From the sequence record PV340539: DNA of 40,804 nt, one strand, 5' to 3'. This DNA comes from Escherichia phage mEp234. Positions within the stretch are counted from its first letter, which is position 1. The number at the start of each line of letters is the position of its first letter. The translations under genes were made by a program, and so were the position numbers. The notes below the pieces were generated by a model. It was not told the origin of the DNA. It ran no database searches and saw only the letters and a program-made list of their open reading frames with translations. Shown here piece by piece: positions 2,483 to 38,885 of this stretch.

Positions 2483-2505
2483 CGACAGACCAGAAGCGGG
2501 AAGCC

Positions 2506-3339: not shown

Positions 3340-3368
3340 GTGTTGTATCTAATCGTGGGGGCAGGTCA

Positions 3369-7426: not shown

Positions 7427-7899
7427 CAATGTGGCACTCCGTTGTCTACTGAAACTTCCCAATAGGTCTCTTCTGTACGTCTACGGGATGAGAAGAAAGT
7501 AACTTCTCTAACATCCCTCGGTTTTTCAAAGTGGTAGTGAACCTCTTTTTTCCCATTAACTGACTCACTGACAGCCTGTTTTACATAATCGTTTAAAGTC
7601 ATATTCTTAGCTTTAGCAGCTAAATATGCTTTTTTATGCAGGGATTCACCTATCCGGATGTTAAACGAACCACTCATTGTCTTATCTGGAGATTTTCCTA
7701 TCTCTTCACAAGTGGAGAGGTAATCGTCCACGGCCTCCTCAAAGGCTGCACGGAGTTCTGCAACCGTTGCACCCTCATAAGTGACGAGATCATTTATACA
7801 TTCGAGTTTTCCATGCATCACCCCATCTTCAAATGAAATGCTGGAGCTACCATAGTAACCTTTGTATTTCATCAAGTTATTCATGATCATCAATCTCAT
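7426..7899 (-). CDS. HicB-like antitoxin-family protein with ~45-aa C-terminal extension (start ambiguous: 7899/7890/7884/7872)
   Basis: '...MKYKGYYGSSSISFEDGVMHGKLECINDLVTYEGATVAELRAAFEEAVDDYLSTCEEIGKSPDKTMSGSFNIRIGESLHKKAYLAAKAKNMTLNDYVKQAV' matches the HicB fold/RHH pattern; overlaps hicA-like 3' end. Confidence 0.7.
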   Translation of the reverse strand: MRLMIMNNLMKYKGYYGSSSISFEDGVMHGKLECINDLVTYEGATVAELRAAFEEAVDDYLSTCEEIGKSPDKTMSGSFNIRIGESLHKKAYLAAKAKNMTLNDYVKQAVSESVNGKKEVHYHFEKPRDVREVTFFSSRRRTEETYWEVSVDNGVPH

Positions 7900-8131
7900 C
7901 TAACAGCTGTTTAACTTCTTCCAAGACGTACCTTTTGAGGGTGTTTTCAGGATGAGGCTCATGAAAAATGACCAATCTATCAACACGTTGGTTGTAAAAT
8001 TTACGGCCAGAACCTCGTTTAGCATTCAAAAGCTTGAAGCCATACTGGTTCATGAGAGTAACGAACTCATCCCAAGTAAAATTTTTGGGTAAGCCGTCTA
8101 ACTTTGACTTTAGCTTTTCCTTTCTTCCCAC
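7877..8131 (-). CDS. HicA-like (YcfA-fold) toxin-family protein, GTG start
   Basis: 84 aa; '...GFKLLNAKRGSGRKFYNQRVDRLVIFHEPHPENTLKRYVLEEVKQLL' resembles the HicA motif but has GSGR where GS(N/H)H is expected; toxin-first order as in hicAB. Confidence 0.6.
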   Translation of the reverse strand: MGRKEKLKSKLDGLPKNFTWDEFVTLMNQYGFKLLNAKRGSGRKFYNQRVDRLVIFHEPHPENTLKRYVLEEVKQLLDEIDDHE

Positions 8132-8390: not shown

Positions 8391-8494
8391 GATTTTATCC
8401 CTGTCTACCCATGCTTCCTGGGCACCAGCGGCTCGTTACTCGGCATCACCCTTAATCCGCCGCCCCATGTGTTTGTTGTGATCCGTTGCTGGCC

Positions 8495-9211
<717 letters not shown>

Positions 9212-9218
9212 TTAAATC

Positions 9219-9284
9219 TATCACCGCAAGGGATAAATATCTAACACCGTGCGTGTTGACTATTTTACCTCTAGCGGTGATAAT
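9219..9284. promoter_or_regulatory. oR3-oR2-oR1 with divergent pRM and pR, lambda type
   Basis: oR3 'TATCACCGCAAGGGATA', oR2 'TAACACCGTGCGTGTTG', oR1 'TACCTCTAGCGGTGATA' (one base differs from my recollection of lambda oR1); pR -35 TTGACT / -10 GATAAT. Confidence 0.9.
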
Positions 9285-9299
9285 GGTTGCATGTACTAA

Positions 9300-9509
<210 letters not shown>

Positions 9510-9516
9510 GTAACAC

Positions 9517-9562
9517 CGCTCTTTTCACAATGGACATTCGTCCTACGTCGCTGACAAAGCGA
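9517..9562 (+). promoter_or_regulatory. nutR: boxA-like 'CGCTCTTTT' and boxB hairpin 'TCGCTGACAAAGCGA'
   Basis: boxA consensus-like element 22 nt upstream of a 5-bp stem / GACAA-loop hairpin, right after cro. Confidence 0.6.
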
Positions 9563-9647
9563 GTCCCAATATATCTGACCAACTAAGGCCATATGCGTTT
9601 CCACGCATACCTTTCAACTAACTATTCACTATTGGAAATCTTAAGAA

Positions 9648-9944
9648 ATGGAAAGAACAAGTTACAGCAAACTATCACAGCGTGACGTTGATCGCGCAGA
9701 AACAGATTTACTCATCAACCTGTCAACGCTTACCCAGCGCGGTCTGGCAAAGATGATTGGCTGTCATGAATCGAAGATAAGCAGAACGGACTGGAGATTT
9801 ATTGCTTCGGTCTTGTGTGCTTTTGGAATGGCATCAGACATCAGTCCGATTAGCAGGGCTTTTAAGTATGCGCTTGATGAAATCACAAAGAAAAAATCCC
9901 CGGCCGCCACCGAGGATTTTAAGCAAATTGATATGCAATTCTGA
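9648..9944 (+). CDS. cII: CII-family transcriptional activator
   Basis: 98 aa; HTH '...GLAKMIGCHESKISRTDW...' and C-terminus '...KKKSPAATEDFKQIDMQF' resemble lambda CII ('...KKRPAATERSEQIQMEF'). Confidence 0.7.
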   Translation: MERTSYSKLSQRDVDRAETDLLINLSTLTQRGLAKMIGCHESKISRTDWRFIASVLCAFGMASDISPISRAFKYALDEITKKKSPAATEDFKQIDMQF

Positions 9945-18582: not shown

Positions 18583-18973
18583 CCATTACAAAGCCCAACT
18601 ACTGGTGGGCTTGATAATGAAACCGGAATTTATTCTGGGCAACCAGTTACGGCAGTACAGCGAAACAACCCAAGCCAGTAAGTGGGGAAATAACACTGGC
18701 AGCCACTGAAAGATGAACCTCCTGCCTTATGGCAAAAAAGATTCTTTGTGGTGGCGGACTGATGGAAAGACATCGGTTATTGCAGAGACCATTCAATGAG
18801 TGGTCTCGACAATAGCTTATACCCTACACGGGATAACTTAACTGATATCCCTTTTAACGGATAAACGGAGCCAACAATGGCAGAGATTATTCTCATGACT
18901 GAAGAACAGAAATTCCAGTTAGAGATTTACAAACTGGTCATGAACCAGAACGCCGCCGTGCATGGAGACTGGC

Positions 18974-19315
18974 ATGAACAAAGAGCCCCGCGTATATGGC
19001 AGCCGATGGGATAAGGCCCGTCTGCGTTTTCTCCAGCAGCACCCACTGTGTGTGATGTGCGAGCAGCAGGGGCGCATAACACCAGCAACGGTGGTCGACC
19101 ATATCGTGCCCCACAAACTGAAAGATGCGCTTAAGTCAGGTAACCCTCTGGCCATATCGAAAGCACAGCTCCTGTTCTGGAGTAAAGAGAACTGGCAGCC
19201 ACTGTGCAAAGCGCATCATGACTCAACGAAACAGAGAATGGAGAAGAGCGGCGCGGTAATCGGTTGTGATGCCAACGGCTACCCGCTCGATCCTGCGTCT
19301 CACTGGAGCACGTAA
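18974..19315 (+). CDS. HNH endonuclease (packaging-associated, upstream of terminase)
   Basis: '...RWDKARLRFLQQHPLCVMCEQQGRITPATVVDHIVPHK...WQPLCKAHHDSTK' HNH motif; alternative start 18962. Confidence 0.85.
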   Translation: MNKEPRVYGSRWDKARLRFLQQHPLCVMCEQQGRITPATVVDHIVPHKLKDALKSGNPLAISKAQLLFWSKENWQPLCKAHHDSTKQRMEKSGAVIGCDANGYPLDPASHWST

Positions 19316-21712: not shown

Positions 21713-22986
21713 TGGAAGAACCTAAATACACGATTGACCTGCGAACCAATAACGGCTGGTGGGCAAGGCTGCAGTCCTGGTTTGTCGGCGGGCGTTTAGT
21801 CACCCCAAATCAGGGCTCACAGACGGGGCCTGTTTCGGCCCACGGACACCTGGGCGATTCATCCATTAACGATGAACGGATACTGCAAATTTCGACTGTG
21901 TGGCGCTGCGTGAGCCTGATTTCAACGCTCACGGCATGCTTACCGCTTGATGTCTTCGAAACAGACCAGAATGACAACCGTAAAAAAGTGGATTTGAGCA
22001 ATCCACTGGCGCGACTGCTGCGCTACTCACCGAATCAGTACATGACCGCCCAAGAATTCAGGGAGGCCATGACGATGCAGCTCTGTTTCTACGGTAACGC
22101 ATATGCACTTGTGGACCGCAACAGCGCAGGTGACGTGATCAGCCTTCTCCCGCTTCAGTCTGCCAATATGGATGTGAAGCTCGTCGGAAAAAAAGTGGTT
22201 TATCGCTATCAACGCGACAGCGAATACGCCGACTTTTCGCAGAAAGAGATTTTTCACCTTAAAGGCTTCGGATTCACCGGGCTTGTAGGCCTGTCACCCA
22301 TTGCTTTTGCCTGTAAATCGGCAGGTGTGGCAGTTGCGATGGAGGACCAGCAGCGAGATTTCTTTGCCAACGGCGCCAAGTCTCCGCAAATCCTCTCAAC
22401 TGGCGAAAAAGTGCTAACTGAACAGCAGCGCTCCCAGGTCGAAGAGAACTTCAAAGAGATCGCCGGCGGCCCGGTAAAAAAACGCCTCTGGATTCTGGAA
22501 GCGGGTTTTTCTACATCGGCAATTGGCGTAACTCCGCAGGATGCCGAAATGATGGCGTCCCGAAAATTTCAGGTAAGTGAACTGGCGCGATTCTTTGGCG
22601 TACCGCCTCACCTTGTCGGCGACGTCGAGAAATCAACGAGCTGGGGATCGGGCATCGAGCAGCAGAATCTCGGCTTCCTGCAGTACACCCTGCAGCCCTA
22701 TATCTCCAGGTGGGAAAACAGCATTCAGCGGTGGCTTATTCCTGCTAAGGATGTTGGCCGCATTCATGCTGAGCACAACCTCGACGGCCTGCTGAGGGGC
22801 GATTCGGCATCCCGCGCTGCCTTTATGAAGGCAATGGGAGAGGCAGGGCTACGCACCATCAACGAGATGCGACGAACGGACAACCTCCCGCCATTGCCGG
22901 GTGGCGATGTGGCAATGCGCCAGTCGCAATACGTGCCGATCACCGATTTAGGAACCAACAAAGAGCCCCGTAATAACGGGGCTTAA
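21712..22986 (+). CDS. Portal protein (HK97-type head module)
   Basis: ~424 aa, follows terL with TGATG overlap (track GTG start 21709). Confidence 0.8.
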   Translation: MEEPKYTIDLRTNNGWWARLQSWFVGGRLVTPNQGSQTGPVSAHGHLGDSSINDERILQISTVWRCVSLISTLTACLPLDVFETDQNDNRKKVDLSNPLARLLRYSPNQYMTAQEFREAMTMQLCFYGNAYALVDRNSAGDVISLLPLQSANMDVKLVGKKVVYRYQRDSEYADFSQKEIFHLKGFGFTGLVGLSPIAFACKSAGVAVAMEDQQRDFFANGAKSPQILSTGEKVLTEQQRSQVEENFKEIAGGPVKKRLWILEAGFSTSAIGVTPQDAEMMASRKFQVSELARFFGVPPHLVGDVEKSTSWGSGIEQQNLGFLQYTLQPYISRWENSIQRWLIPAKDVGRIHAEHNLDGLLRGDSASRAAFMKAMGEAGLRTINEMRRTDNLPPLPGGDVAMRQSQYVPITDLGTNKEPRNNGA

Positions 22987-23003
22987 TTTTTATGGGGGCC
23001 GTA

Positions 23004-25985: not shown

Positions 25986-26329
25986 ATGAAGATAATATCT
26001 ACGCCTTGCTTTCTCCCCTGGCAGAGGGGCGGGTATACCCCTATGTTGCGCCATTAGGTAGTGACGGGAAACCGTCTGTCTCTCCACCCTGGATTATCTT
26101 TTCCATCGTCGATGATGTTTCCGCTGACGTACTGTGTGGCCAGGCAGAGAGCAGGGTTTCCGTTCAGGTCGATGTGTATGCCACAACGATCACTGAATCA
26201 CGATCCCTGAGAGATTTGGCGCTCGCTTCGCTTAAGCAGTTAAACCCTACAGAGGTGGTAAAAATCCCCGGGTACGAGCCAGATTATCGGCTCTACCGTG
26301 CCACCCTGGATTTTAAAGTTACCCCCTGA
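25982..26329 (+). CDS. Tail terminator protein (gpU-like)
   Basis: 115 aa immediately upstream of major tail gene. Confidence 0.6.
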   Translation: MNEDNIYALLSPLAEGRVYPYVAPLGSDGKPSVSPPWIIFSIVDDVSADVLCGQAESRVSVQVDVYATTITESRSLRDLALASLKQLNPTEVVKIPGYEPDYRLYRATLDFKVTP

Positions 26330-26348
26330 CGATTAATTCACCCAACGA

Positions 26349-26375
26349 ACCCGCCTGATGGCGGGTTTTCTTTTT
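26349..26375 (+). terminator. Intrinsic terminator between head-completion and tail genes
   Basis: Hairpin 'acccgcc-tgat-ggcgggt' + TTTCTTTTT. Confidence 0.6.
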
Positions 26376-26388
26376 CCAGGAGACAGCT

Positions 26389-27093
26389 ATGTCTGCACTT
26401 TATGAAAAATCGCAGCTGACGAAGATCCTTATTTCCTCCCTGCCAGCCACCAAAGAAACGATGGATTCCGCCACCTTTCTCGATCTGAGTTGCACCATCA
26501 AAGAAATTCAGTTCACTGGTGGCCAGAAGCAGGATATCGACGTAACAACACTTTGCTCTACCGAGCAGGAGAACATCAACGGCCTGCCTTCTCCGTCAGA
26601 AATCTCTCTGTCCGGCAACTTCTACAATAATCCAGCGCAGGACGCCTTGCGTGATGCGTATGACAACGACACCACTTACGGCTTCCAGATCATCTTCCCG
26701 TCAGGTAATGGTTTTAAGTTCCTGGCCGAAGTTCGCCAGCATACCTGGTCATCTGGTACCAATGGTGTTGTGGCAGCTACATTCTCACTGCGCCTTAAAG
26801 GCAAGCCTGTCCCGATTGACTCTGTACTTAAACTGACCACTGATCTTCCTTCCTCACTGTCTGTAGCGGTGGGGGCTGCGATCAGCATGGCTGTAGTAGC
26901 TGCCGGTGGTAAGCCTCCGTATGCCTACACCTGGAAGAAGGCAGGTAGCACCGTCAGCGGGCAGACATCCGATACCTTTAATAAAGCCACCGCAGTTTCA
27001 GGTGATGCAGGTGATTACACCTGTGTGGTTACGGATTCTTCTTCTCCGGTCAAAACGGTTACCTCAGCTGCCTGCACCCTTACTATCAGTTAA
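26389..27093 (+). CDS. Major tail (tube) protein with C-terminal Ig-like domain
   Basis: 234 aa; C-terminal '...GGKPPYAYTWKKAGSTVSGQTSDTFNKATAVSGDAGDYTCVVTDSSSP' Ig-like. Confidence 0.8.
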   Translation: MSALYEKSQLTKILISSLPATKETMDSATFLDLSCTIKEIQFTGGQKQDIDVTTLCSTEQENINGLPSPSEISLSGNFYNNPAQDALRDAYDNDTTYGFQIIFPSGNGFKFLAEVRQHTWSSGTNGVVAATFSLRLKGKPVPIDSVLKLTTDLPSSLSVAVGAAISMAVVAAGGKPPYAYTWKKAGSTVSGQTSDTFNKATAVSGDAGDYTCVVTDSSSPVKTVTSAACTLTIS

Positions 27094-27127
27094 TGGAGAT
27101 GCCGGGTTGTCCCGGCATGGATAAGCG

Positions 27128-27514
27128 ATGTCGCAAACTTTAAAACAATTAGCCATGGCGAAAATGGCTGGCTTTCGCCATAAGACGGTCGTTGTCCCTG
27201 AGTGGGAAGGTGTCAAAGTGGTTCTCCGTGAGCCGTCAGGTGAAGCCTGGCTGCGCTGGCAGGAGGTGGTGAAAGGGGGGGCCGACGATGAAAATGTGTC
27301 GGTATCGGAAAAGGCGCACCGTAATCTTTGCGCTGACGTGGTGCTCTTCATTGACGTTCTGTGTGACACCGATAAGCAACCGGTATTCAGCGTAGACGAA
27401 GAAGAGCAGGTGCGTGAAATTTACGGGCCAGTGCACTCACGTCTGCTCAAACAGGCGCTTGACCTGATCAACAATGCGGACGAAGCGCGGGAAAAGTCTC
27501 AACCCCCGGCGTAA
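27128..27514 (+). CDS. Tail assembly chaperone (gpG-like)
   Basis: 128 aa, upstream of tape measure; -1 frame ORF follows. Confidence 0.75.
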   Translation: MSQTLKQLAMAKMAGFRHKTVVVPEWEGVKVVLREPSGEAWLRWQEVVKGGADDENVSVSEKAHRNLCADVVLFIDVLCDTDKQPVFSVDEEEQVREIYGPVHSRLLKQALDLINNADEAREKSQPPA

Positions 27515-27522
27515 AGTTTCTG

Positions 27523-27801
27523 ATGTCGCTTGCGCTCCGGATGGGGCGCACGCTCTCAGAGCTTCGGCAGAATATGACGGCAAGCGAGCTTCTGATGTGG
27601 ATTGAGTACGACAGGCAAAGCCCGGTTGGCGATATTCGCGGTGATATCCATGCAGCGCAGATTGTCTCTGCCATCTACGGCTCGCAGGGGGCAAAAGTAC
27701 CGCTGGACGATGCGATCCTGCGCTGGGGTGGTGATGAGCAATCAGAACCGAAGGACCCGTTTGCAGGGCTTGAGGCGGCACTTACAGCTGCGACACAATA
27801 A
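27523..27801 (+). CDS. Tail assembly chaperone frameshift extension (gpT-like; expressed as G-T fusion by -1 frameshift)
   Basis: -1 frame relative to G-like ORF, open from 27463; slippery-like 'GGGAAAAG' at 27489-27496. Confidence 0.65.
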   Translation: MSLALRMGRTLSELRQNMTASELLMWIEYDRQSPVGDIRGDIHAAQIVSAIYGSQGAKVPLDDAILRWGGDEQSEPKDPFAGLEAALTAATQ

Positions 27802-27858
27802 TTGCTTCACATGCCTTCAATGTAGCGATACGCTCTTTCCTTAAGTAAAGGAGGCGTT

Positions 27859-28047
27859 ATGGAACCACTGGTAGTAGTGTTTGGAATATTCGGCTGGCTG
27901 ATAAATCTAATTGTGATTTTTTATTTATTACGGTTTAGCACAAGGGCAAATGAACAAGTTGAAGCCCTTAAAGAGATAAATAAAAAGCAAGATGCGCAAA
28001 TAGATTTATTAATACAAGTCGCTCACCAAAGAAAAGACAGTTTATAA
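27859..28047 (+). CDS. Small single-pass membrane protein (62 aa), moron between G/GT and tape measure; paralog of 33212..33436
   Basis: RBS AAGGAGG; N-terminal TM helix; 'FYLLRFSTRANEQVEALKEINKK' aligns with 'FFINRASVRANRQVELLESIDQK'. Confidence 0.7.
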   Translation: MEPLVVVFGIFGWLINLIVIFYLLRFSTRANEQVEALKEINKKQDAQIDLLIQVAHQRKDSL

Positions 28048-28054
28048 CTCACGA

Positions 28055-28077
28055 CCCGCTATCAAGCGGGTTTTTTT
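28055..28077 (+). terminator. Hairpin + U7 element after the first membrane-protein moron
   Basis: 'cccgct-atca-agcggg' + TTTTTTT, immediately before ATGGG. Confidence 0.6.
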
Positions 28078-31000
28078 ATGGGTGAAAATATGGCTACGTT
28101 GCGCGAACTGATCATCAAAATATCTGCAAACTCTCAGTCATTCCAGTCTGAAATTTCTCGTGCTTCAAGAATGGGGAATGACTATTACCGGGTAATGCAG
28201 ACTGGAGGACGCCAATCGGCCGCAGCTTCGCGTGAAACTCAGCGTGCCTTGGCTGAGGTAACTAGTCAAATAAACACCGCGAAGGCCTCAGCACTGGGAA
28301 TGGCTGGTGCATTTGCTGGAGCATTTGCGACTGGTCATCTTATATCGCTGGCCGATGAATGGAGCTCTATTAATGCCAGGCTAAAGCAGGCTTCCCAGTC
28401 GTCAGATGATTTCACGGAGTCCCAGCGGGCGCTGATGGATATTAGCCAGCGAACCGGAACCGCCTTCTCTGATAATGCGAGTCTTTTTGCGCGTTCAGCC
28501 GCTTCTATGCGTGAATATGGCTACAGTTCAGAAGAGGTTCTGAAGGTAACCGAGGCTATATCAACAGGGCTTAAGCTGTCAGGCGCAAGCGCGTCTGAAG
28601 CGAGTTCGGTAATCACGCAGTTCAGCCAGGCTCTGGCGCAGGGTGTTCTTCGAGGCGAGGAATTTAACTCCGTCAACGAAAACGGTGATCGAGTTATCCG
28701 TGCTCTTGCCGCAGGGATGGGTGTAGCTCGTAAAGATCTGAAGGCAATGGCCGATCAGGGGATGCTAACCGCAGATAAAGTTGTCCCGGCCCTGATAAGT
28801 CAACTTGGCACTATGCGTGGTGAATTTGAGGCAATGCCGCAGACCGTTTCTGCTGCCACGACGAAAGTCGAAAATGCTTTCATGGCATGGGTAGGTGGCG
28901 CTAATGAAGCCACTGGTGCGACAAGTACTCTTGTTGCCGTATTGAATACGGTTTCTGACAATATAGACACTGTGGCTACGGCTGCCGGAGCTTTGGCTGC
29001 GATAGGTGGAGCTCGCTATCTTGGAGGGATGTTTGGCGATCTTGGGAACCAGACGGCGCAATTAATAGATGCCAGAAAGAACGAAATTGCGCTCGCAGCT
29101 GCAAGGGCTGAATCTGCTACCCAATCACAACGCAAGGCCGCCGCCGATGCTATTGCTGCTGAGCGAGCTTACCAGCTTGCTCAGTCAGAACTTGTGCTGG
29201 CAAAGAATACTAATGCTGAGGCTACTGCCACTCAAAATGCCATATCCAAGCGCCGGGCAATGATTACAGCAAATGCGGCACTGGTACAGTCAAACAGAGC
29301 CGTTGCAGCCTCTCAGCAGGCACTTAACTCTGCAACATCAGTGCTGGGGCTTGTAAAAACTGGCGCTACGGGTCTTTTGTCGTTAGTTGGTGGTTTGCCA
29401 GGAATTTTAATGTTGGGTGCTGGGGCGTGGTACACGATGTATCAACGCCAAGAACAAGCCAGGGAATCTGCAATCAAATATGCGGACACAATAGAGCAGG
29501 TACGAGATAATCTGAAATCAATGTCTCAGACGCAGATATCCGCCAACCTTGGACAGGCGAATATTTCACTGGATGCTCAGAATAGTGCGATTGAACAGCA
29601 GAAGCAGAAAGTTGCTGAATTATCCAATCAACTTTATAACGCAAAATTAGCAGCCAATTCTGCTTCAGAGGGGACATGGCTGTATAACGATGCGGTTGAG
29701 AAAGCCGCAGACTTTGCTTCAGAACTTGCGGTTGAAGAAGGCCGACTTGAGCAAATGCTCAATAAAAGAAAGCAAACACAACAGTTAATAAACGACATAA
29801 CTGATCAGGCTATAAATAAAACAGTAGAAATGGCTGGCGCCGTAAGTTCTCTTACAGAGATGTATGACCGGCTGAACAAGGTTTCCAGACAGTCTACAGC
29901 AGTGTCCCCACCAAAATATGCAGGACCTGTACTTCCTGCGCTTGATAATAAGCAACAACAAGCTATTGAGAAAGCACAGCGACAGCTTGAGTTATCTGGC
30001 CTTCAGGGTTTGGATAAGGCTCGAAAGCAGGCAGAATTCGATGCATCTGATCTGAACCTTCCAGCTGGTTGGCGTGAGAAATATGTCAGCATGGAAGTTG
30101 AGTCTGCCAGGCAATTACAAGCAATTCGTAACTCAAGCCGCCATAAGGGTGGAAAATCCGAGGCGGAAAAAACAGCTGATACCTATGACAAGCTGATCAA
30201 GCAGCAAAAAGAGCAGATCGCTCTGCAAGGGCAGAATACCGAGCTGGCAAAGGTTAAATATCAGGTAAGCCAGGGTGAGCTTTCTACGCTAAGTCAGGCC
30301 CAGAAAGCCGAAGTTATGCGTAATGCTGCTCTCATCGATCAGGTTAAATTGCGTGAGCAACTGCGAAATTACGAAGCCAACCTTGCTGACAGTAACGCCA
30401 GCGCCCGCGCAGCCAATGAAGCGCAACTGCTGGGATACGGGCAGGGAACCAGGTTCCGTGAAAGACTTCAGGAGCAGTTCAATCTGCGTAAGGAGTTTGA
30501 GCAGAAGAATACCGATCTTCTCCGCCAGCGTCAGGCTGGTGAAATCGACGAGACGTTCTATCAGCAGGGGCTGGCACTTAATAAGCGCTACCTCGAAGAG
30601 CGCCTGCGCGACCAGGAGGGATATTACGCAGCTTCTGATGCGCAGCGTGACGACTGGATGACGGGACTGTCTGAGGGTTATGCGAACTGGGTGGACGAAG
30701 CGACAGATTACTCCTCCATGGCCGCTGACGGCATGAAGCAGGCCATGGGTGGCGCGGTCACCACGATCACCGACATGCTCAATGGCAACGTTGACAGCTG
30801 GAAGGACTGGGGCGTGAGCGTACTGAAGATCATCCAGAACGTTCTGGTGAACATGGCTGTTGCTAACGGCGTCAGTTCAATTGGTTCTCTCTTCAGCTTT
30901 GGCGCATCTTCCGCCGCTGCCGCCAGTAGCGGTACTGCAATTCAGAACGCTGGCGCGAACTTCACCTTTAACGCGAAGGGTAATGTTTACGACTCTCCGT

Positions 31001-31356
31001 CCCTGAGCGCATACAGCAATGGCGTGTTTCAGACCCCTCAGCTTTTTGCTTTTGCCAAAGGAGCGGGTGTGTTTGCAGAGGCTGGACCTGAAGCCATTAT
31101 GCCGCTTACCCGTGCTGCTGATGGTTCGCTTGGCGTTCGGGCTGTTGGCACTGGTGGTGGTCAGGCTGTATCTTCGGCTCCACAGGTTTACATCACCATC
31201 GATGGCAACGGAAATACTTCCACGCAGACTTCACCCGGCCTTGAGCAATTTGGTGCTGATGTCGGTAAATATATTGATCAGCGATATAAGCAGAACATCA
31301 TGCGAGATATTCGCCCTGGCGGTGACATCTGGAACGCAATGAAAGGAACCCGATAA
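28078..31356 (+). CDS. Tail tape measure protein
   Basis: 1092 aa, alpha-helical/Ala-Gln-rich, between chaperone and M/L/K/I/J. Confidence 0.9.
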   Translation: MGENMATLRELIIKISANSQSFQSEISRASRMGNDYYRVMQTGGRQSAAASRETQRALAEVTSQINTAKASALGMAGAFAGAFATGHLISLADEWSSINARLKQASQSSDDFTESQRALMDISQRTGTAFSDNASLFARSAASMREYGYSSEEVLKVTEAISTGLKLSGASASEASSVITQFSQALAQGVLRGEEFNSVNENGDRVIRALAAGMGVARKDLKAMADQGMLTADKVVPALISQLGTMRGEFEAMPQTVSAATTKVENAFMAWVGGANEATGATSTLVAVLNTVSDNIDTVATAAGALAAIGGARYLGGMFGDLGNQTAQLIDARKNEIALAAARAESATQSQRKAAADAIAAERAYQLAQSELVLAKNTNAEATATQNAISKRRAMITANAALVQSNRAVAASQQALNSATSVLGLVKTGATGLLSLVGGLPGILMLGAGAWYTMYQRQEQARESAIKYADTIEQVRDNLKSMSQTQISANLGQANISLDAQNSAIEQQKQKVAELSNQLYNAKLAANSASEGTWLYNDAVEKAADFASELAVEEGRLEQMLNKRKQTQQLINDITDQAINKTVEMAGAVSSLTEMYDRLNKVSRQSTAVSPPKYAGPVLPALDNKQQQAIEKAQRQLELSGLQGLDKARKQAEFDASDLNLPAGWREKYVSMEVESARQLQAIRNSSRHKGGKSEAEKTADTYDKLIKQQKEQIALQGQNTELAKVKYQVSQGELSTLSQAQKAEVMRNAALIDQVKLREQLRNYEANLADSNASARAANEAQLLGYGQGTRFRERLQEQFNLRKEFEQKNTDLLRQRQAGEIDETFYQQGLALNKRYLEERLRDQEGYYAASDAQRDDWMTGLSEGYANWVDEATDYSSMAADGMKQAMGGAVTTITDMLNGNVDSWKDWGVSVLKIIQNVLVNMAVANGVSSIGSLFSFGASSAAAASSGTAIQNAGANFTFNAKGNVYDSPSLSAYSNGVFQTPQLFAFAKGAGVFAEAGPEAIMPLTRAADGSLGVRAVGTGGGQAVSSAPQVYITIDGNGNTSTQTSPGLEQFGADVGKYIDQRYKQNIMRDIRPGGDIWNAMKGTR

Positions 31357-31358
31357 AA

Positions 31359-31697
31359 ATGGCTATCGAAACTTTCACCTGGTGCCCACGACTTAACGCT
31401 GAGGCAGATATAAATTTCCGCGTCAGGAAAGCACAGTTTGGTGATGGATATGAGCAGGTTTCAGGGGATGGATTGAACACCAGAACCCAGCAATGGACGC
31501 TCAACTTCACTGGCAACGAAACCTACATTTCTGCCATTAAATCTTTTCTCGACAGGCATGAAGGAACGAAAGCCTTTCAATGGAAGCCACCGCTCGAACC
31601 TTTGGGTTTGTATCGTTGCGAAACGTATAAACCCACCGGGCTTGGCGCGGGGAAATTCAACCTTGAAGCAACATTCATCCAGGCATTTAAACCATGA
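31359..31697 (+). CDS. M: Minor tail protein M-like
   Basis: 112 aa; '...FGDGYEQ...' as in lambda gpM; position after tape measure. Confidence 0.75.
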   Translation: MAIETFTWCPRLNAEADINFRVRKAQFGDGYEQVSGDGLNTRTQQWTLNFTGNETYISAIKSFLDRHEGTKAFQWKPPLEPLGLYRCETYKPTGLGAGKFNLEATFIQAFKP

Positions 31698-32452
31698 GCT
31701 TAAACGCAGATTATCAGAAGCTGGAATCCGGAAACGATGTTCGTCTGATTGAGGTGGACGGTTCTTCCTTTGGGCTAACGGACGTTCTCCGCTTTCACAA
31801 TTACAGCATTCCCCACACAGAAGCGGAAATCATCGCCGCTGGTGGGGATGAGTCCAAGCTTCCGGCGAAACCAATCTGGTGGCAGGGAAATGAATACGCC
31901 GCCTGGCCGTATCAGCTGGAAGGTCTGGAGAAATCAACCAGTGGGAGCAATGCAACGCCATCACTGACGGTTGCGAACATCGAAAGCTCCATTTCTGCTC
32001 TGTGTCTTGCGTATGACGATCTGCTGCAGGCTAAAGTCACTATTCACGACACAAAAGAGAAATATCTCGATGCCAGGAATTTCGCAGACGGTAACCCTTC
32101 TGCAGACCAGACTCAGGAAAAGCTGCAGGTCTGGTATATCGACGGGAAAACGGGCGAGCTTGCCGGTGAAACCGTTGAATTTGTTCTGTCCAGCCCGATG
32201 GACCTGCAGGGGCAAATGATCCCGACGCGACAGCTTCATTCCCTGTGTACCTGGTGCATCCGGAATAAATATCGCACCGGCGACGGCTGCGACTATGCCG
32301 GCACCCGCTATTTCGACAAAAACAACAACCCGGTAAGCGATCCGTCGCTGGATGAATGCAACGGCACGCTGACGGCCTGCAAACTCCGATTCGGCGAAAA
32401 TAACGAACTCTCGTTTGGTGGCTTCCCGGGCACGTCTTTGATCAGGAGTTGA
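31694..32452 (+). CDS. L: Minor tail protein L-like
   Basis: 252 aa, Cys-rich C-terminus 'CTWCIRNKYRTGDGCDYAG...CNGTLTACKLRFGENNELSFGGFPG'. Confidence 0.85.
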   Translation: MSLNADYQKLESGNDVRLIEVDGSSFGLTDVLRFHNYSIPHTEAEIIAAGGDESKLPAKPIWWQGNEYAAWPYQLEGLEKSTSGSNATPSLTVANIESSISALCLAYDDLLQAKVTIHDTKEKYLDARNFADGNPSADQTQEKLQVWYIDGKTGELAGETVEFVLSSPMDLQGQMIPTRQLHSLCTWCIRNKYRTGDGCDYAGTRYFDKNNNPVSDPSLDECNGTLTACKLRFGENNELSFGGFPGTSLIRS

Positions 32453-32453
32453 T

Positions 32454-33164
32454 ATGCGTCAGAAAACCGTCGATGAGATTATGGCGCATGCTGCAGCTGA
32501 ATATCCTCGCGAGTGTTGCGGCGTGGTGGCGCAGAAAAGCCGTGTTGAACGTTATTTCCCGTGCCGGAATCTTGCCGCGGCGCCGGAGGACAATTTTGTC
32601 CTTTGCCCGGAAGATTACGCAGCTGCTGAGGACTGGGGTACGGTGATCGCCATCGTTCACAGTCACCCTGACGCCACAACGCAACCGAGCGAACTGGATA
32701 AAGCGCAATGCGACGCAACGCTTTTACCCTGGCACATCGTGAGCTGGCCTGAGGGGGATTTGCGCACCATCCAGCCGCGTGGGGAACTGCCGCTGCTGGA
32801 GCGTCCGTTTGTGCTTGGCCACTTCGACTGCTGGGGTCTGGTAATGAGCTATTTCCGGCAAACGCATGGTATCGAGCTCCACGATTACCGGGTTGATTAT
32901 CCCTGGTGGGAAAACGACTATCCGGACAACTTCTATCAGGATTGCTGGTATGAGTGCGGATTCCGTGAATTCGACGGACCACCGAAACCCGGCGATATGG
33001 TGATCATGCAGGTCCAGGCTGATAAGTGGAACCACGCTGGAATTCTGCTGGAGGGCAATATGCTGCTGCACCACCTGTACGGACATCTGAGCCAGCGCGT
33101 GCCGTATGGTGGCTACTGGCAGGAAAGGACGATGAAGATTCTTAGACATCAGAATTTTATTTAA
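32454..33164 (+). CDS. K: Tail assembly protein K-like (JAB/MPN + NlpC/P60 domains)
   Basis: 236 aa; JAMM motif 'HSHPD', Cys/His NlpC-like region. Confidence 0.85.
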   Translation: MRQKTVDEIMAHAAAEYPRECCGVVAQKSRVERYFPCRNLAAAPEDNFVLCPEDYAAAEDWGTVIAIVHSHPDATTQPSELDKAQCDATLLPWHIVSWPEGDLRTIQPRGELPLLERPFVLGHFDCWGLVMSYFRQTHGIELHDYRVDYPWWENDYPDNFYQDCWYECGFREFDGPPKPGDMVIMQVQADKWNHAGILLEGNMLLHHLYGHLSQRVPYGGYWQERTMKILRHQNFI

Positions 33165-33211
33165 CAAACTGTCACTGATACTATCGTGTAGTACACAGCA
33201 AGGAGAACGAT

Positions 33212-33436
33212 ATGTATACAGTTGGGTTTGGTTGGATCTTCGTCGGTATTTTTATTGGGTTAATTCTCTGGTTTTTCATCAACCGCGCCAGCGTCAGAGC
33301 GAACAGGCAGGTTGAATTACTTGAGTCTATCGACCAGAAATTATCAAAAATAGTAGATCCAAACTTCGAGGCAAATAACAAAGACCAGTCGAAAGAAAAC
33401 TACCTTGAAGAAGCAAGGAAAAAAGCTGGGCTTTGA
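33212..33436 (+). CDS. Small single-pass membrane protein (74 aa), moron between K and I; paralog of 27859..28047
   Basis: RBS AAGGAGA; N-terminal TM helix; shared RAN(E/R)QVE motif. Confidence 0.7.
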   Translation: MYTVGFGWIFVGIFIGLILWFFINRASVRANRQVELLESIDQKLSKIVDPNFEANNKDQSKENYLEEARKKAGL

Positions 33437-33452
33437 GAGCGTAAATTAACAA

Positions 33453-33474
33453 ACCACCTACGGGTGGTTTTTTT
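33453..33474 (+). terminator. Hairpin + U7 element after the second membrane-protein moron
   Basis: 'accacc-tacg-ggtggt' + TTTTTTT before ATGGGGG. Confidence 0.6.
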
Positions 33475-33485
33475 ATGGGGGCAGC

Positions 33486-34094
33486 ATGCAAGAGGTAATG
33501 ACAAGAATTGAGCTAAGTGGCGTGCTAGCTAAGACATATGGAAGGGTTCATCACCGTCTGGTTCGCACTACTGCTGAAGCCATTAATGCACTCGCGAAAA
33601 CCATCAATGGATTCGAGAAATTCTTAAACACAAGCAAAGCCCGAGGGCTGACGTATGCCGTTTATAGAGATAAAAAGAATATTGGCGTTGATGATCTCGG
33701 CTTTCCCGTCACCGGCGAAGTGATCCGGATTGTCCCTGTAGTAATAGGGAGTAAAAAGGCTGGTCTTTTGCAGACGATCTTGGGGGCCGTGCTTATTACT
33801 GCTGCTGTGTTGACTGGAGCCGGCGGTATTGGCGCTGCTTTCGCTGCTGGTGGATTGACGGGGTTTGCTGCTGCCACTGGTGCCTCGTTGGTCCTCGGTG
33901 GGGTTATTCAGCTGCTTTCACCGCAGCCATCAGGCATAGCCAGTAAACAAAGCGCAGATAACCGTGCATCGTATGCGTTTGGCGGGGTAACCAACACTGC
34001 AGCGCAAGGCTACCCGGTGCCTCTGCTTTATGGTAAGCGTCGAATCGGCGGAGCGATTATTTCTGCCGGAATTTATGTCGAAGATCAGCAGTAG
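33486..34094 (+). CDS. I: Tail assembly protein I-like
   Basis: 202 aa with Gly/Ala-rich hydrophobic C-terminal half typical of lambda gpI. Confidence 0.8.
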   Translation: MQEVMTRIELSGVLAKTYGRVHHRLVRTTAEAINALAKTINGFEKFLNTSKARGLTYAVYRDKKNIGVDDLGFPVTGEVIRIVPVVIGSKKAGLLQTILGAVLITAAVLTGAGGIGAAFAAGGLTGFAAATGASLVLGGVIQLLSPQPSGIASKQSADNRASYAFGGVTNTAAQGYPVPLLYGKRRIGGAIISAGIYVEDQQ

Positions 34095-34113
34095 ATAACT
34101 AACCTTTTTTCTG

Positions 34114-34135
34114 GCCACCTTCGGGTGGCTTTTTT
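34114..34135 (+). terminator. Hairpin + U6 element upstream of J-like gene (third copy of the element)
   Basis: 'gccacc-ttcg-ggtggc' + TTTTTT before ATGGGCG. Confidence 0.5.
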
Positions 34136-34146
34136 ATGGGCGCAAT

Positions 34147-37100
34147 ATGGCTACAGATAAAGTGTTAAAAGGCCGCAAGGGCGGCAGCTCAAGTTCCCGA
34201 ACCCCTACCGAACAGCCTGATGATCTGCAATCTGTAGCGAAGGCAAAGATCCTCGTTGCGCTTGGGGAAGGGGAGTTTGCTGGACAGCTCACCGGGAAGG
34301 ATATCTACCTGGACGGAACAGCGCTGGAGAATGCTGACGGCTCCCAAAACTTCAGCGGGGTAACGTGGGAGTTTCGCGCGGGAACGCAGGCGCAAAAATA
34401 TATTCAGGGTATTCCCGGTACCGAAAACGAGATCAGCGTAGGAACTGAGGTATCAAGTGCCACAGCCTGGACGCGCACGTTTACCAATACGCAGCTTTCA
34501 GCAGTTCGCCTGCGTCTTAAATGGCCCTCGCTTTTCAAACAGGAAGACGACGGCGATCTGGTGGGTTACTCGGTCAATTATGCGATTGACCTGCAGACGG
34601 ACGGCGGCACATGGCAGACGGTACTCAATACCAGCGTGACCGGCAAAACGACGTCTGGTTATGAGCGCAGCCACCGTATCGATTTACCGCAGGCTGGCAG
34701 CACATGGACAATACGTCTGCGTAAGATTACCTCTGACGCCAACAGCGCGAAGATCGGCGACACGATGATGCTGCAGAGCTTCACCGAGGTGATTGATGCC
34801 AAACTGCGCTACCCGAACACCGCGCTGCTCTACGTCGAATTCGACTCAAGCCAGTTCAACGGCTCTATTCCTCAAATTTCATGCGAACCGCGCGGCCGCG
34901 TTATCCGCGTTCCAGATACCTACGACCCTGAAACCCGCACTTATAGCGGTACATGGACCGGTGCGTTTAAGTGGGCATGGACGGATAACCCTGCGTGGAT
35001 TTTTTACGACCTGGTTGTTTCTGACCGGTTTGGCCTCGGGCACCGTTTGACCGCTGCGAATATTGATAAATGGACTCTTTATCAGGTTGCTCAGTATTGT
35101 GATCAGATGGTACCAGACGGCAAAGGGGGCAACGGTACAGAACCACGCTATACCTGCAACGTGTACATTCAGGACCGGAACGACGCCTACACAGTCCTGC
35201 GTGATTTTGCCGCTATCTTCCGTGGCATGACCTACTGGGGCGGGGATCAGATTGTGGCCCTGGCTGACATGCCGCGCGATGTTGATTACAGCTATACGCG
35301 CGCTAACGTTGTTGGCGGTCGCTTCACCTATTCGAGCAGCACCACGAAAAGCCGCTACACCACAGCGCTGGTTTCATGGTCAGATCCGGGTAACGCTTAT
35401 GCCGACGCAATGGAGCCGGTATTTGAGCAGGCGCTGGTGGCGCGATACGGCTTCAATCAGCTGGAAATGACAGCCATCGGCTGCACCAGGCAGTCAGAGG
35501 CGAACCGAAAGGGGCGCTGGGGTATTCTCACCAACAACAAGGATCGCGTTGTTTCGTTTGATGTCGGGCTGGACGGAAACATTCCGCAGCCGGGCTACAT
35601 CATCGCCGTGGCAGACGAGCTGCTTTCCGGAAAGGTTATGGGCGGCCGCATCAGCGCCGTTAACGGTCGCGTTATCAAACTTGACCGCGTAGCTGATGCA
35701 GCACCAGGTGATCGCCTTATTCTCAACCTGCCTTCCGGAGCGTCGCAGAGCAGGACCATTCAGGCCGTGAACGGGGAATCAGTCACAGTCACCACGGCAT
35801 ACAGTGAGACGCCACAGGCCGAAGCTGTTTGGGTTGTTGAATCTGACGAGCTTTACGCGCAGCAGTATCGTGTTGTCAGCGTCTCCGACAACGGTGATGG
35901 CACTTTCTCAATCACCGGCGCATGGCACGACCCGGATAAATATGCCCGCATCGATACCGGAGCCATCATTGACCAGCGGCCGGTGAGCGTGATCCCGCCT
36001 GGTAACCAGTCGCCGCCTGCGAACATCGTGATCAGCTCGTTTTCCGTGGTGCAGCAAAATATCAGCGTCGAAACGATGCGCGTGAGCTGGGACCAGGCGC
36101 AGAACGCTATCGCCTATGAAGCGCAATGGCGCCGCAACGACGGGAACTGGGTTAACGTGCCGCGCACCTCCACCACGTCATTCGACGTCCCGGGGATTTA
36201 TGCCGGGCGCTACCTGGTGCGGGTGCGCGCAATCAATGCCGCAGAAATTTCATCCGGATGGGGCTATTCAGAAGAGAAAACGCTGACGGGTAAAGTGGGC
36301 AATCCACCGAAGCCGGTTGGCTTCATCGCTTCTGAAAATGTGGTTTTCGGCATCGAGCTGAACTGGGGATTCCCGGCGAATACCGACGACACGCTGAAGA
36401 CGGAAATTCAGTACAGCCTGACCGGAACCGAGGACGATGCGATGCTGCTGGCCGATGTGCCTTATCCGCAGCGCAAATATCAGCAGATGGGCCTCAAGGC
36501 TGGGCAGATTTTCTGGTACCGCGCTCAGCTGGTGGACCGCAGCGGCAACGAATCAGGGTACACAGAATGGGTGCGAGGACAGGCCAGCATCGATGTTTCC
36601 GACATCACAGATGTGATCCTGGAGGACATGAAAGGCTCCGATACGTTCAAAGACCTGATCGAGAACGCTGTGGACAGCAATGAAAAAATTGCTGGCATGG
36701 CTGACGAAATCAAAAACCATGCCGACGAACTCGAGCAGCAGGCGAAAGACATCCAGGAAAACGCTGACGGGCTGGCCCAGGCCGAAGTGAAGATCGACGA
36801 GATTTCTGTGTCGATGGATGGCATGACGGGAGGCGTGAAGAACTCGGCAATCGCGATTATCCAGAATGGGCTGGCGCAGGTTGTCAGTCGTCGTTCCCAG
36901 ACCGCGACAAACGCAGGGAACAGCGCCAGCATTGACCGTATCGACACGACCATAGCCGACACCAGCTCGGCGGTTGCTCGCGCGCTGGTGACGCTGGATG
37001 CTTCAGCTGGTGGGAATATCTCCAACTCTACCGATCTCACTGAAACTCTGGCCGATTTCACGCAGGCATCGGCGACAAAAATTAACACCCTGAATGTTAA

Positions 37101-37602
37101 ATCTGGCGAAAACAGTGCCGCGATAAATGTCAACGCACAGGCTATCGCAGATGTAAACGGTAACCTAAGTGCGATGTACAACATCAAGGTTGGTGTCTCC
37201 AGCAATGGACAGTATTACGCCGCGGGGATGGGTATCGGCGTGGAGAATACGCCATCCGGCATGCAGTCGCAGGTTATCTTCCTGGCTGATCGCTTCGCCG
37301 TCACCACGGCGGCCGGAAATAGCGTGGCTTTGCCGTTCGTGATCCAGAACGGGCAGACATTCATCCGGGCCAGTTTCATCCAGGACGGCACTATCAGCAA
37401 CGCAAAGATTGGTAATTTTATCCAGTCGAACAATTATGTTGCTGGTTCTGCTGGCTGGAAGCTTGATAAAGGGGGGACGTTTGAGAACTACGGTTCGACT
37501 GCTGGTGAGGGAGCCATGAAACTGACAAATCAGACGATCAGCGTCAAAGATGGCAGTAATGTTCTTAGGGTGCAGGTTGGCCGATTAACGGGAGTATTCT
37601 GA
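34147..37602 (+). CDS. J: Central tail fibre / host specificity protein J-like
   Basis: 1151 aa; conserved J-like N-terminal two-thirds with fibronectin-type region; divergent C-terminus. Confidence 0.9.
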   Translation: MATDKVLKGRKGGSSSSRTPTEQPDDLQSVAKAKILVALGEGEFAGQLTGKDIYLDGTALENADGSQNFSGVTWEFRAGTQAQKYIQGIPGTENEISVGTEVSSATAWTRTFTNTQLSAVRLRLKWPSLFKQEDDGDLVGYSVNYAIDLQTDGGTWQTVLNTSVTGKTTSGYERSHRIDLPQAGSTWTIRLRKITSDANSAKIGDTMMLQSFTEVIDAKLRYPNTALLYVEFDSSQFNGSIPQISCEPRGRVIRVPDTYDPETRTYSGTWTGAFKWAWTDNPAWIFYDLVVSDRFGLGHRLTAANIDKWTLYQVAQYCDQMVPDGKGGNGTEPRYTCNVYIQDRNDAYTVLRDFAAIFRGMTYWGGDQIVALADMPRDVDYSYTRANVVGGRFTYSSSTTKSRYTTALVSWSDPGNAYADAMEPVFEQALVARYGFNQLEMTAIGCTRQSEANRKGRWGILTNNKDRVVSFDVGLDGNIPQPGYIIAVADELLSGKVMGGRISAVNGRVIKLDRVADAAPGDRLILNLPSGASQSRTIQAVNGESVTVTTAYSETPQAEAVWVVESDELYAQQYRVVSVSDNGDGTFSITGAWHDPDKYARIDTGAIIDQRPVSVIPPGNQSPPANIVISSFSVVQQNISVETMRVSWDQAQNAIAYEAQWRRNDGNWVNVPRTSTTSFDVPGIYAGRYLVRVRAINAAEISSGWGYSEEKTLTGKVGNPPKPVGFIASENVVFGIELNWGFPANTDDTLKTEIQYSLTGTEDDAMLLADVPYPQRKYQQMGLKAGQIFWYRAQLVDRSGNESGYTEWVRGQASIDVSDITDVILEDMKGSDTFKDLIENAVDSNEKIAGMADEIKNHADELEQQAKDIQENADGLAQAEVKIDEISVSMDGMTGGVKNSAIAIIQNGLAQVVSRRSQTATNAGNSASIDRIDTTIADTSSAVARALVTLDASAGGNISNSTDLTETLADFTQASATKINTLNVKSGENSAAINVNAQAIADVNGNLSAMYNIKVGVSSNGQYYAAGMGIGVENTPSGMQSQVIFLADRFAVTTAAGNSVALPFVIQNGQTFIRASFIQDGTISNAKIGNFIQSNNYVAGSAGWKLDKGGTFENYGSTAGEGAMKLTNQTISVKDGSNVLRVQVGRLTGVF

Positions 37603-37603
37603 A

Positions 37604-37906
37604 ATGGCTTATGGAATACAGACCTGGGATGCTTCAGGAAAACCCAACAACTATGGCATCAAACCCGTTTCCGTCGTTGGGCGAATACAGCTGGCTGCCG
37701 GGCAAACCTCCGGCAGCTGGTCTTTTACGGTGCCCTCAGGAATGAAAGTTGGTTTTGTTCTTTCACTTGATGAAGGAGGTAACAGCGTAGGGCGGCGCAT
37801 TGTCGCGTCAGGGAGCACAATAACCGTAAGCGCTGCATCTTCTGTAGGTCTGGGTAATTATCCGGCCTCAAAGTGTGAAGTGGTCGTTTTCATGGAGAAA
37901 GCATAA
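37604..37906 (+). CDS. Hypothetical protein (100 aa) downstream of J
   Basis: ORF tightly coupled to J stop. Confidence 0.5.
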   Translation: MAYGIQTWDASGKPNNYGIKPVSVVGRIQLAAGQTSGSWSFTVPSGMKVGFVLSLDEGGNSVGRRIVASGSTITVSAASSVGLGNYPASKCEVVVFMEKA

Positions 37907-38544
37907 TGGCCGAATTTGGCGCGATGATATTAATGGACAACGGGAACCCATTTGTAACGCCCCAGTCAACGCCTTTTTGTCTTTACGGCAAGTACACTTT
38001 CAACTCCTCTGCTAATGGCAGTTCGCAGCAGGTTGCTCAGAATATTGCATTAAATGCTGACTACCCTGTGATGGTATTTATCAGGACCACAAATACCGCC
38101 CAGCCCACGCCAGTAATATCTTACCGGAACGGCGGAAATATATATGTCGCGGGGGTTAATCCCTATAACCAGAGCTTCACGTTAACCGCATATATTTTTG
38201 CCATATTTCCCCAGACGTTACCGAAATGGGGGATGGCCATCTGGGATTCGAGCGGGAAGCTGGTACTCACTAATGAGTCCCGCGTGCTGTCAGACTTGCA
38301 GACAATCGGAACGCCTGGAGCAAACGGCGGGATTAACATTGACCAGACGCTTGATGGTTCATGGGCAGTGGCTCCATCAAGGCTGGGGCAAGTGAACAGA
38401 AACGACGCTTACTCATCTTGTAGGTATTCAGGCACAAGTACAAGAATAAACGCCGGTACAGCCGCAAATACACCTGGCGGTGCTGGAGGGGTGATAAATA
38501 ATGGAATTATCCTGACAGCAATTAAAACAGACGCCTATGATTGA
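37906..38544 (+). CDS. Hypothetical protein (212 aa) downstream of J; shares a short 'WD(A/S)SGK' segment with the preceding ORF
   Basis: ATGA-coupled to the 100-aa ORF. Confidence 0.5.
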   Translation: MAEFGAMILMDNGNPFVTPQSTPFCLYGKYTFNSSANGSSQQVAQNIALNADYPVMVFIRTTNTAQPTPVISYRNGGNIYVAGVNPYNQSFTLTAYIFAIFPQTLPKWGMAIWDSSGKLVLTNESRVLSDLQTIGTPGANGGINIDQTLDGSWAVAPSRLGQVNRNDAYSSCRYSGTSTRINAGTAANTPGGAGGVINNGIILTAIKTDAYD

Positions 38545-38651: not shown

Positions 38652-38885
38652 ATGAAAAGGCTAATTATCTGCATAGCGGGCGCTTTAATGCTGTCTGGTT
38701 GCGCTGGTGTACTTGAGAAACAGAAACCGATTTGCAGCGGCACGGCATATATGGGTGGCCATGAGAATACCGTTATGATTTACGCCGTTCGAAAGCAAAA
38801 CAACCAGACGCAATACCGGGCCGGATATCCCTTTAACTGGCGCTGGGTAAGTGCGAACACATTCACAAGCACGACATGTAAATAA
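38652..38885 (+). CDS. Small lipoprotein (77 aa), Cor-like superinfection-exclusion candidate
   Basis: Signal peptide + lipobox 'LSGCAG'; AT-rich upstream region and downstream hairpin/U-run; typical position for lambdoid cor genes. Confidence 0.55.
   Translation: MKRLIICIAGALMLSGCAGVLEKQKPICSGTAYMGGHENTVMIYAVRKQNNQTQYRAGYPFNWRWVSANTFTSTTCK

Follow-up and report, generated by a model that had tools for sequence, protein, structure and literature searches.

A YebO-family moron between tail genes K and I of an mEp234 genome in prophage order, a diverged relative of HK97 gp15 and a candidate second superinfection-exclusion gene

Why should a single prophage carry two small membrane-protein genes of one family within the same tail operon? 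The question is raised by the window (the whole 40,804-nt stretch of DNA that was analysed), in which the tail operon is lambda-like, with the order V, G, T, small ORF, H (tape measure), M, L, K, small ORF, I, J (Table 1). The product of the first small ORF is 98.4% identical to gp15 of phage HK97, the founding example of a moron and, to our knowledge, one of only a few injection-blocking exclusion proteins in Gram-negative siphophages. According to the summary given in a commentary, HK97 gp15 is expressed from the prophage, inserts into the inner membrane and blocks genome entry by HK97 and HK75 (PMC3594210). The second small ORF encodes a 74-aa protein, here denoted gp20 after its counterpart in phage HK022, for which no experiments and no expression or phenotype data were found in the searchable literature (the original gp15 study lies outside it). 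So what is gp20, how is it related to gp15, and could it be a second exclusion protein?

The gene itself is by no means new. The tail region of the window (positions 26000-38000) is 100% identical to that of Escherichia phage mEp234, and the window as a whole represents mEp234 in the prophage arrangement, permuted at attP, with a single insertion of 1222 bp. The HK022 protein (NP_037680, 'moron gene product') is identical to the product of the 74-aa ORF over the aligned residues 24-74, residues 1-23 being masked by the low-complexity filter of tblastn; the 361 nt around HK022 gp20 differ from the window at 2 positions only, and the K|I site and the terminator are the same. There is nothing of substance that would set the HK022 gene apart from the one described here, which belongs to the same lineage (mEp234), in prophage order and with an IS elsewhere in the genome. 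The RefSeq/PGAP name is 'YebO family protein', and the gene is found in 7 of 5426 complete E. coli genomes. Thus, the 74-aa gene is already known and, as a sequence feature, changes nothing, having been annotated as a moron since the publication of the HK022 genome. Within the phage collection, both small genes are present in at least seven coliphages (HK75, HK106, HK446, HK544, HK633, mEp234 and mEpX1; those other than mEp234, and HK022 as well, have identical homologues of gp20), and gp20 occurs without gp15 in at least five (HK022, HK542, mEp235, mEp506 and ECP1). The genome of HK97 (AF069529) contains a gene 20 homologue with a CAG to TAG change at codon 32 (6528-6530 of the locus, 33305-33307 of the window), on account of which the HK97 record passes directly from Gp19 to Gp21, the stretch in between being unannotated. 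It follows that the classic gp15 exclusion experiments were performed in a phage without an intact gp20 and, given that HK97 is viable with the nonsense allele, that gp20 is dispensable for phage growth.

As for the 1222-bp insertion relative to the mEp234 reference, it lies in the early-left region (2148-3369), between the homologues of mEp234_027 and mEp234_028, and encodes an 87-aa HTH_Tnp_1 ORF and a 277-aa ORF with an rve integrase core. Its segment 2449-2566 matches the Rfam IS1222 frameshift element with 156.6 bits, which is the sole match in a scan of the whole window at Rfam gathering thresholds (the hairpins discussed below are unmatched). Judging by these ORFs and this match, the insertion is an IS1222-like element of the IS3 family.

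Table 1. Features of the gp20 locus and of the related loci in the window
Feature	Position	Strand	Remarks
Variant (fourth) instance of the hairpin/T-run/ATGGG layout, portal|protease junction	22965-22997		after the portal gene
Paralogue, 62-aa YebO-family protein (gp15)	27859-28047	+	between tail chaperone T and tape measure H
Terminator, T-run and ATGGG after gp15	28053-28082	+	directly before H
Tail gene K, 236-aa Prok-JAB/NlpC-P60 protein	32454-33164		left neighbour of the 74-aa ORF
Candidate sigma-70-like promoter, TTAACA-15 nt-TATCGT	33161-33187	+	9/12 matches, weak
Shine-Dalgarno sequence of the 74-aa ORF, AAGGAG	33200-33205	+	from the sequence; ATG 6 nt further on
Small-ORF CDS (mEp234_018, HK022 gp20)	33212-33436	+	74 codons, ATG to TGA
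Parts of the gp20 CDS			TM helix, residues 5-23; juxtamembrane NRASVRANRQVELLESI; C-terminal YLEEARKKAGL
Intrinsic terminator (predicted)	33451-33474	+	8-bp hairpin and T-run; rho-independent terminator in the mEp234 annotation
ATGGG and start of gene I	33475-33488	+	ATGGG 33475-33479; G-run 33477-33481, likely RBS; ATG at 33486
Tail gene I, 202-aa protein	33486-34094		right neighbour of the 74-aa ORF
Third hairpin/T-run/ATGGG copy, I|J junction	34113-34140	+	small ORF absent here

The preliminary description of the locus had pointed to an ORF with a ribosome-binding site, a transmembrane helix and a charged C-terminal tail longer than that of its paralogue, and the analysis bears this out. 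Start, stop and Shine-Dalgarno sequence are in place (Table 1), the hydrophobicity peaks at the 19-residue window that defines the helix, with a mean Kyte-Doolittle value of 2.36, and the tail comprises 51 aa, including 10 K/R and 9 D/E, compared with 40 aa in the paralogue. The helix is preceded by no charged residue and followed, within eight residues, by three arginines, so that, under the positive-inside rule, gp20 is predicted to adopt an N-out/C-in topology, with some 4 residues in the periplasm and nearly all of the soluble part in the cytoplasm. An AlphaFold2 model built with 22 homologues consists of helices 2-48 and 52-72 at moderate confidence (pLDDT 71), and the hydrophobic helix, the positive-inside rule and the modelled helices jointly predict an inner-membrane protein. 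An antisense ORF of 66 aa (33181-33381) was considered as a possible gene and rejected, since it is the plus-strand frame that is conserved.

The designation of this gene as a moron inserted between K and I, which is that of the HK022 annotation and of the preliminary description alike, is supported by its being an extra gene of deviant composition with what appears to be its own terminator. The GC content is 0.40-0.42 across positions 33100-33500 as against 0.53-0.61 in K, and there is a similar dip, to 0.34-0.40, at gp15. K and I are 321 nt apart in the window, with the ORF in between; in related tails that lack an intervening gene, K and I abut or overlap, as in a Pantoea locus (L005; K 8427-9146, I 9139-9783) and likewise in a metagenomic one (L006). 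The definition that we follow is that of Juhala and Hendrix as restated in PMC3594210, which also includes a promoter belonging to the moron itself, a point that is taken up below.

The relationship between gp20 and gp15 is straightforward to establish. In a pairwise BLASTP comparison, 19 of 44 aligned residues are identical (43%; E 5e-9), both proteins clear the Pfam gathering score of 27 for YebO (PF13974; 47.7 bits, E 1.8e-12 for gp20, and 38.7 bits for gp15), and both are matched over their full lengths by PHROG 5031 (E 6.9e-41 and 4e-29, respectively). The similarity is not limited to the hydrophobic helix but extends into the polar motif R-x-S-x-RAN-x-QVE-x-L that follows it, and the juxtamembrane pattern N-R-A-S-x-R-x-N-x-Q-x-E-L-L of gp20, which is invariant across the gp20 lineage, aligns with E. 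coli YebO. Neither small ORF matched any PADLOC family at E <= 1, and the NCBIfam search gave no meaningful matches. The ORF is admittedly short, and low-complexity masking covers its residues 1-23 in tblastn, but the notion that this is a chance ORF whose resemblance to gp15 stems from hydrophobic composition, with neither a real gene nor real paralogy behind it, has a virtually nil probability and is refuted by the BLASTP match with its polar motif, the scores of both ORFs above a curated Pfam threshold, the 38 homologue clusters of conserved length, the nine invariant and fourteen near-invariant alignment columns, and the strong purifying selection in the same reading frame.

The two copies had been described as diverged, and the divergence is indeed such that synonymous sites are saturated (pS 0.96). 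A recent duplication within the phage is ruled out by this saturation, by the poor alignment of the flanks except for the T-run/ATGGG, and by the fact that gp20 is closer to YebO than to gp15; by all these sequence comparisons, the gp20/gp15 pair is an old divergence. HK97 gp15 (Cumby et al. 2012, as summarised in PMC3594210 and PMC10883804) and gp20 belong to the same Pfam and PHROG family, share the single N-terminal TM helix, the polar motif and the predicted topology, and are both encoded in low-GC cassettes with terminators of their own inside the tail operon. They differ in location, gp15 at T|H being physically linked to a tape measure gene of the HK97 type and gp20 at K|I to the M-L-K-I tip module, and in that gp15 contains the segment KKQDAQIDLLIQVAH, which is missing from gp20, whereas gp20 has the YLEEARKKAGL end, which is missing from gp15. 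The core of gp20 is closer to chromosomal YebO than to gp15: in the comparison with E. coli K-12 YebO (b1825, 95 aa), the founder of the Pfam family, the segment IGLILWFFINRAS...ELLE is 73% identical over 30 aa (E 1e-13), and from the end of the TM helix through the juxtamembrane region (IGLILWFFINRAS) the two proteins are almost the same. Unlike gp20, YebO has a 9-aa N-terminal extension, a C-terminal half that ends in ..IIRLVAER, and a chromosomal locus by mgrB.

The wider family allows these relationships to be placed in perspective. A YebO profile search among 1.84 billion representative proteins yielded 73 clusters at 50% identity, and the named matches (Escherichia, Enterobacter, Serratia, Pantoea, Klebsiella, Metakosakonia) delineate a small family restricted to Enterobacterales; one cluster, from a 1.9-kb metagenome contig, is labelled 'MAG: Eubacterium sp.'. 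Three kinds of YebO proteins can be distinguished, namely, chromosomal ones that end in ..VAER or ..IPER, phage-borne ones that end in YLEEARKKAGL, and gp15-like ones with KKQ-AQIDLLI--AH. A protein of the Klebsiella phage ST101-KPC2phi6.3 (QBQ71586, 77 aa; locus L015) links the gp15 and gp20 lineages in that it combines a gp15-like middle, KQSAQIDLLIALAH, with a gp20-like end, YLEEARKKAGLI, sharing with gp20 the C-terminal motif DYLEEARKKAGLI. It is likewise encoded in a tail operon and is about 50% identical to gp15 and gp20 each, but differs from gp20 in its gp15-like middle, in its location at the T|TMP junction and in the tail-tip type of the operon. In the light of this bridging form, gp15 would seem to be an offshoot of this phage-borne clade in which the C-terminus has been shortened. 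A much weaker, gp15-like match was detected in the Klebsiella phage VLCpiS11a (Guernseyvirinae; L016, 5989-6243): this is an 84-aa membrane ORF, 31% identical at E 6e-3, that runs antiparallel to the tail genes between a tail tube-like gene and the tail chaperone, and it may represent a remote YebO-like moron of an unrelated siphophage, unless the match is due to chance.

The gp20 lineage proper comprises 38 clusters at 90% identity, with lengths of 74-86 aa, from Enterobacter, Serratia, Pantoea and others. The juxtamembrane segment (Table 1) is invariant or nearly so in this lineage, and the C-terminal YLEEARKKAGL is conserved. Selection on the lineage in this reading frame is purifying: pN is 0.24-0.34 with synonymous sites saturated in most pairs, and omega, computable for five pairs only, is 0.03-0.27. 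The suggestion that the copies are maintained is thus supported by the data for gp20, and the further suggestion of specialisation is plausible, considering that the C-terminal motif is conserved in the gp20 lineage and lacking in gp15.

The genomic neighborhoods of the gp20-lineage genes vary. They are located at K|I in E. coli phages, in Enterobacter sichuanensis and in Serratia, at H|M in Pantoea multigeneris (L005/L012) and in the metagenome contig, and at T|H in Pantoea rwandensis (L011). All homologues examined are inside siphophage tail operons, those of the gp20 lineage in operons of the HK97 type. The survey covers about 10 independent loci and is a sample rather than a census, with a gp20 profile scan of the genome collection accounting for 5 loci; across these, the gp20 cassette is mobile among tail-operon junctions. 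Some of these regions contain additional DNA next to I: in Serratia prophages (L004, 7278-7610, and L010), an extra 110-aa ORF with no Pfam match lies between the YebO-like gene and I, and in the P. rwandensis locus there are about 840 nt of additional DNA between K and I.

Could the mobility be related to the sequence element at the cassette end? The preliminary description had noted that the same hairpin/U-run/ATGGG follows both small ORFs, and the element is present after each; it is not, however, specific to the morons, since further copies are found at the I|J and portal|protease junctions, where there is no small ORF. The pattern GGTGGYTTTTTTATGGG, with up to 2 mismatches, occurs three times in the window, before H, I and J, against 0.01 expected. 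The hairpin/T-run/ATGGG layout is found in four of the eight late-operon terminators annotated in mEp234, and the junctions involved (portal|protease, gp15|H, gp20|I and I|J) all present a hairpin, a T-run, ATGGG(G/T/C)G, 4-5 nt and the next start codon; the succession of T-run, GGGNG, 4-5 nt and ATG accordingly precedes H, J and the protease gene as well. We read this element as a generic late-operon junction, in which the T-run of a terminator appears to abut a G-rich RBS, and see in it no signature of a YebO cassette, because it is also present without the small ORF. An interpretation of ATGGG as the end of a mobile element was rejected for the same reason and because the T-run and G-rich RBS account for the sequence. 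The cassettes in Pantoea, Serratia and the metagenome contig close with a hairpin, a T-run and ATGGG, ATAGG or ATTGG, with the qualification that in the two Serratia loci L004 and L010 the hairpin after the YebO-like gene is not obvious.

The I|J junction is of some interest in its own right. In the window phage it is 'empty' (34095-34146), consisting of 52 nt with the terminator only; the I|J junctions of HK97 (7315-8012) and HK022 (7315-7820, both in locus coordinates) contain a forward gp22 and a reverse gp23/srb moron upstream of the same hairpin, which there too immediately precedes J. The leaders into H (28070-28098) and J (34129-34155) are strikingly alike past the T-run (TTTTTTTATGGGTGAAAATATGGCTAC and TTTTTTATGGGCGCAATATGGCTAC, respectively), and this likeness could reflect shared boundary sequences at the junctions that favour recombination.

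If gp20 is to act in a lysogen, it has to be expressed there, which brings us back to the promoter. The standard scan upstream of the gene, for sites with at least 9 of 12 consensus matches at a spacer of 16-18 nt, found none, and the relaxed scan produced candidates at chance level only, the one listed in Table 1 having a spacer of just 15 nt and being equalled by 14% of shuffles. The -10 element of this candidate ends 24 nt before the gp20 ATG. No convincing sigma-70 promoter is thus present, and prophage expression of gp20 is a conjecture. Downstream of the gene, termination is predicted at a GC-rich hairpin with a tetraloop (33451-33470; 8 bp, -13.5 kcal/mol, z -2.8) that starts 14 nt after the stop codon and is followed by seven T.

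The lack of an upstream promoter that reaches the usual consensus threshold is what would be expected if gp20 were produced only from the Q-antiterminated late transcript, in a lytic role, and were silent in the prophage. The gene is, moreover, co-oriented with and embedded in the late operon, where terminators at 8 junctions require read-through. But the best promoter-like site of gp15 is equally weak (8/12) and sits at the identical offset, and gp15 is nonetheless expressed from the prophage, as summarised in PMC3594210, so that a weak consensus match is not evidence of silence; morons that are expressed autonomously typically have a low GC content and a dedicated terminator, as gp20 does; and the growth of HK97 with the nonsense allele implies that any lytic role would be dispensable. 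Exclusively late expression therefore strikes us as unlikely, and we take an equally reserved view of the particular late roles that can be imagined, such as stopping secondary injection into infected or lysing cells or modulating late membrane events.

The remaining and central question is that of function. P22 SieA, TP-J34 Ltp and Tuc2009 Sie2009 are prophage-encoded membrane proteins that prevent DNA from entering the cell once the phage has adsorbed, and where siphophages are excluded in this way, it is the tape measure protein that has been implicated as the target (PMC10883804). No sequence relationship of SieA, Ltp or Sie2009 to gp20 was detected with Pfam, PHROG or PADLOC. By its predicted location, almost wholly in the membrane or the cytoplasm, gp20 also differs from Ltp, a lipoprotein whose action takes place outside the membrane. 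By analogy with gp15, we propose that gp20 serves in superinfection exclusion, preventing phages with long, non-contractile tails from completing the inner-membrane step of DNA injection, a proposal to which we would give even chances of being correct. The gene forms part of a low-GC cassette, consisting of a ribosome-binding site, the 74 codons and a predicted intrinsic terminator, that is inserted between the tail-tip genes K and I. Under the proposed scenario, the product, made from the prophage and additionally by read-through during late transcription, would be a bitopic inner-membrane YebO protein with an arginine-rich juxtamembrane helix and a second conserved helix in the cytoplasm; and, because almost nothing of gp20 is predicted to be periplasmic, the block to siphophage DNA injection would be exerted by the TM helix together with the cytoplasmic helices. 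Since the cytoplasmic part differs from that of gp15, the specificity of gp20 probably differs as well.

Family membership as such does not make an exclusion protein. Within the account given in PMC3594210, most PSI-BLAST homologues of gp15 are non-phage YebO proteins, and neither overexpression nor deletion of chromosomal YebO had an effect on HK97; given that the gp20 core is nearer to YebO than to gp15, membership in this family cannot be equated with exclusion activity. Conceivably, then, gp20 could be a factor of lysogenic conversion or host physiology that acts in the inner membrane in the manner of chromosomal YebO and is unconnected with phage exclusion, and the near identity of its core to the K-12 protein, together with the largely chromosomal, enterobacterial make-up of the family as described in that commentary, is the evidence that speaks for such a role. 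We nevertheless regard it as improbable, considering that the phage-borne YLEEARKKAGL is missing from the chromosomal YebO proteins with their different ends, that every phage copy is part of a tail operon and has tape measure or tail-tip genes as neighbours, and that gp15, the sole phage-borne member to have been tested, is an exclusion protein, whereas YebO showed no phage phenotype.

Returning to exclusion as the function of gp20, what could its target be? gp15 accompanies the tape measure gene of the HK97 type, and gp20, in identical form, accompanies the module that extends from the end of H through M-L-K-I-J. The identical gp20 is found alongside three very divergent tape measure types, namely, the HK97 type, the HK022 type and an Enterobacter type at 46% identity, which argues against a target that is strictly the cognate tape measure protein. 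A lock directed strictly at the phage itself would be expected to co-vary with the tape measure, which gp20 does not. The most inclusive version of our proposal is that the prophage has in gp20 a second exclusion protein that blocks injection, with a target range unlike that of gp15, and that the phage-borne YebO clade as a whole is a mobile cassette; taken in its entirety, this is a tentative reading to which we assign somewhat less than an even chance. Should it be true, HK97-like prophages would possess a small arsenal of YebO-derived membrane 'locks', gp15 and gp20, in addition to the unrelated Cor; the YebO cassette marked by YLEEARKKAGL would hop among the T|H, H|M and K|I junctions across Enterobacterales; and the step that involves the tape measure and the inner-membrane channel would be the one on which gp20 acts, either from within the membrane or from its cytoplasmic side. 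In practical terms, gp20 is a natural, diverged relative of gp15, and the comparison of the two with the Klebsiella bridge could show which part of these proteins of about 70 residues sets the specificity.

Other genes of this prophage also deserve mention. The mEp234 annotation includes Cor, the exclusion protein that blocks FhuA (38652-38885 in the window, 18947-19180 in mEp234), and, on the minus strand by the repressor (about 7004-8131), a HicA/HicB toxin-antitoxin pair. With Cor and HicA/HicB in the same prophage, gp15 and gp20 are joined by several further candidates for host protection.
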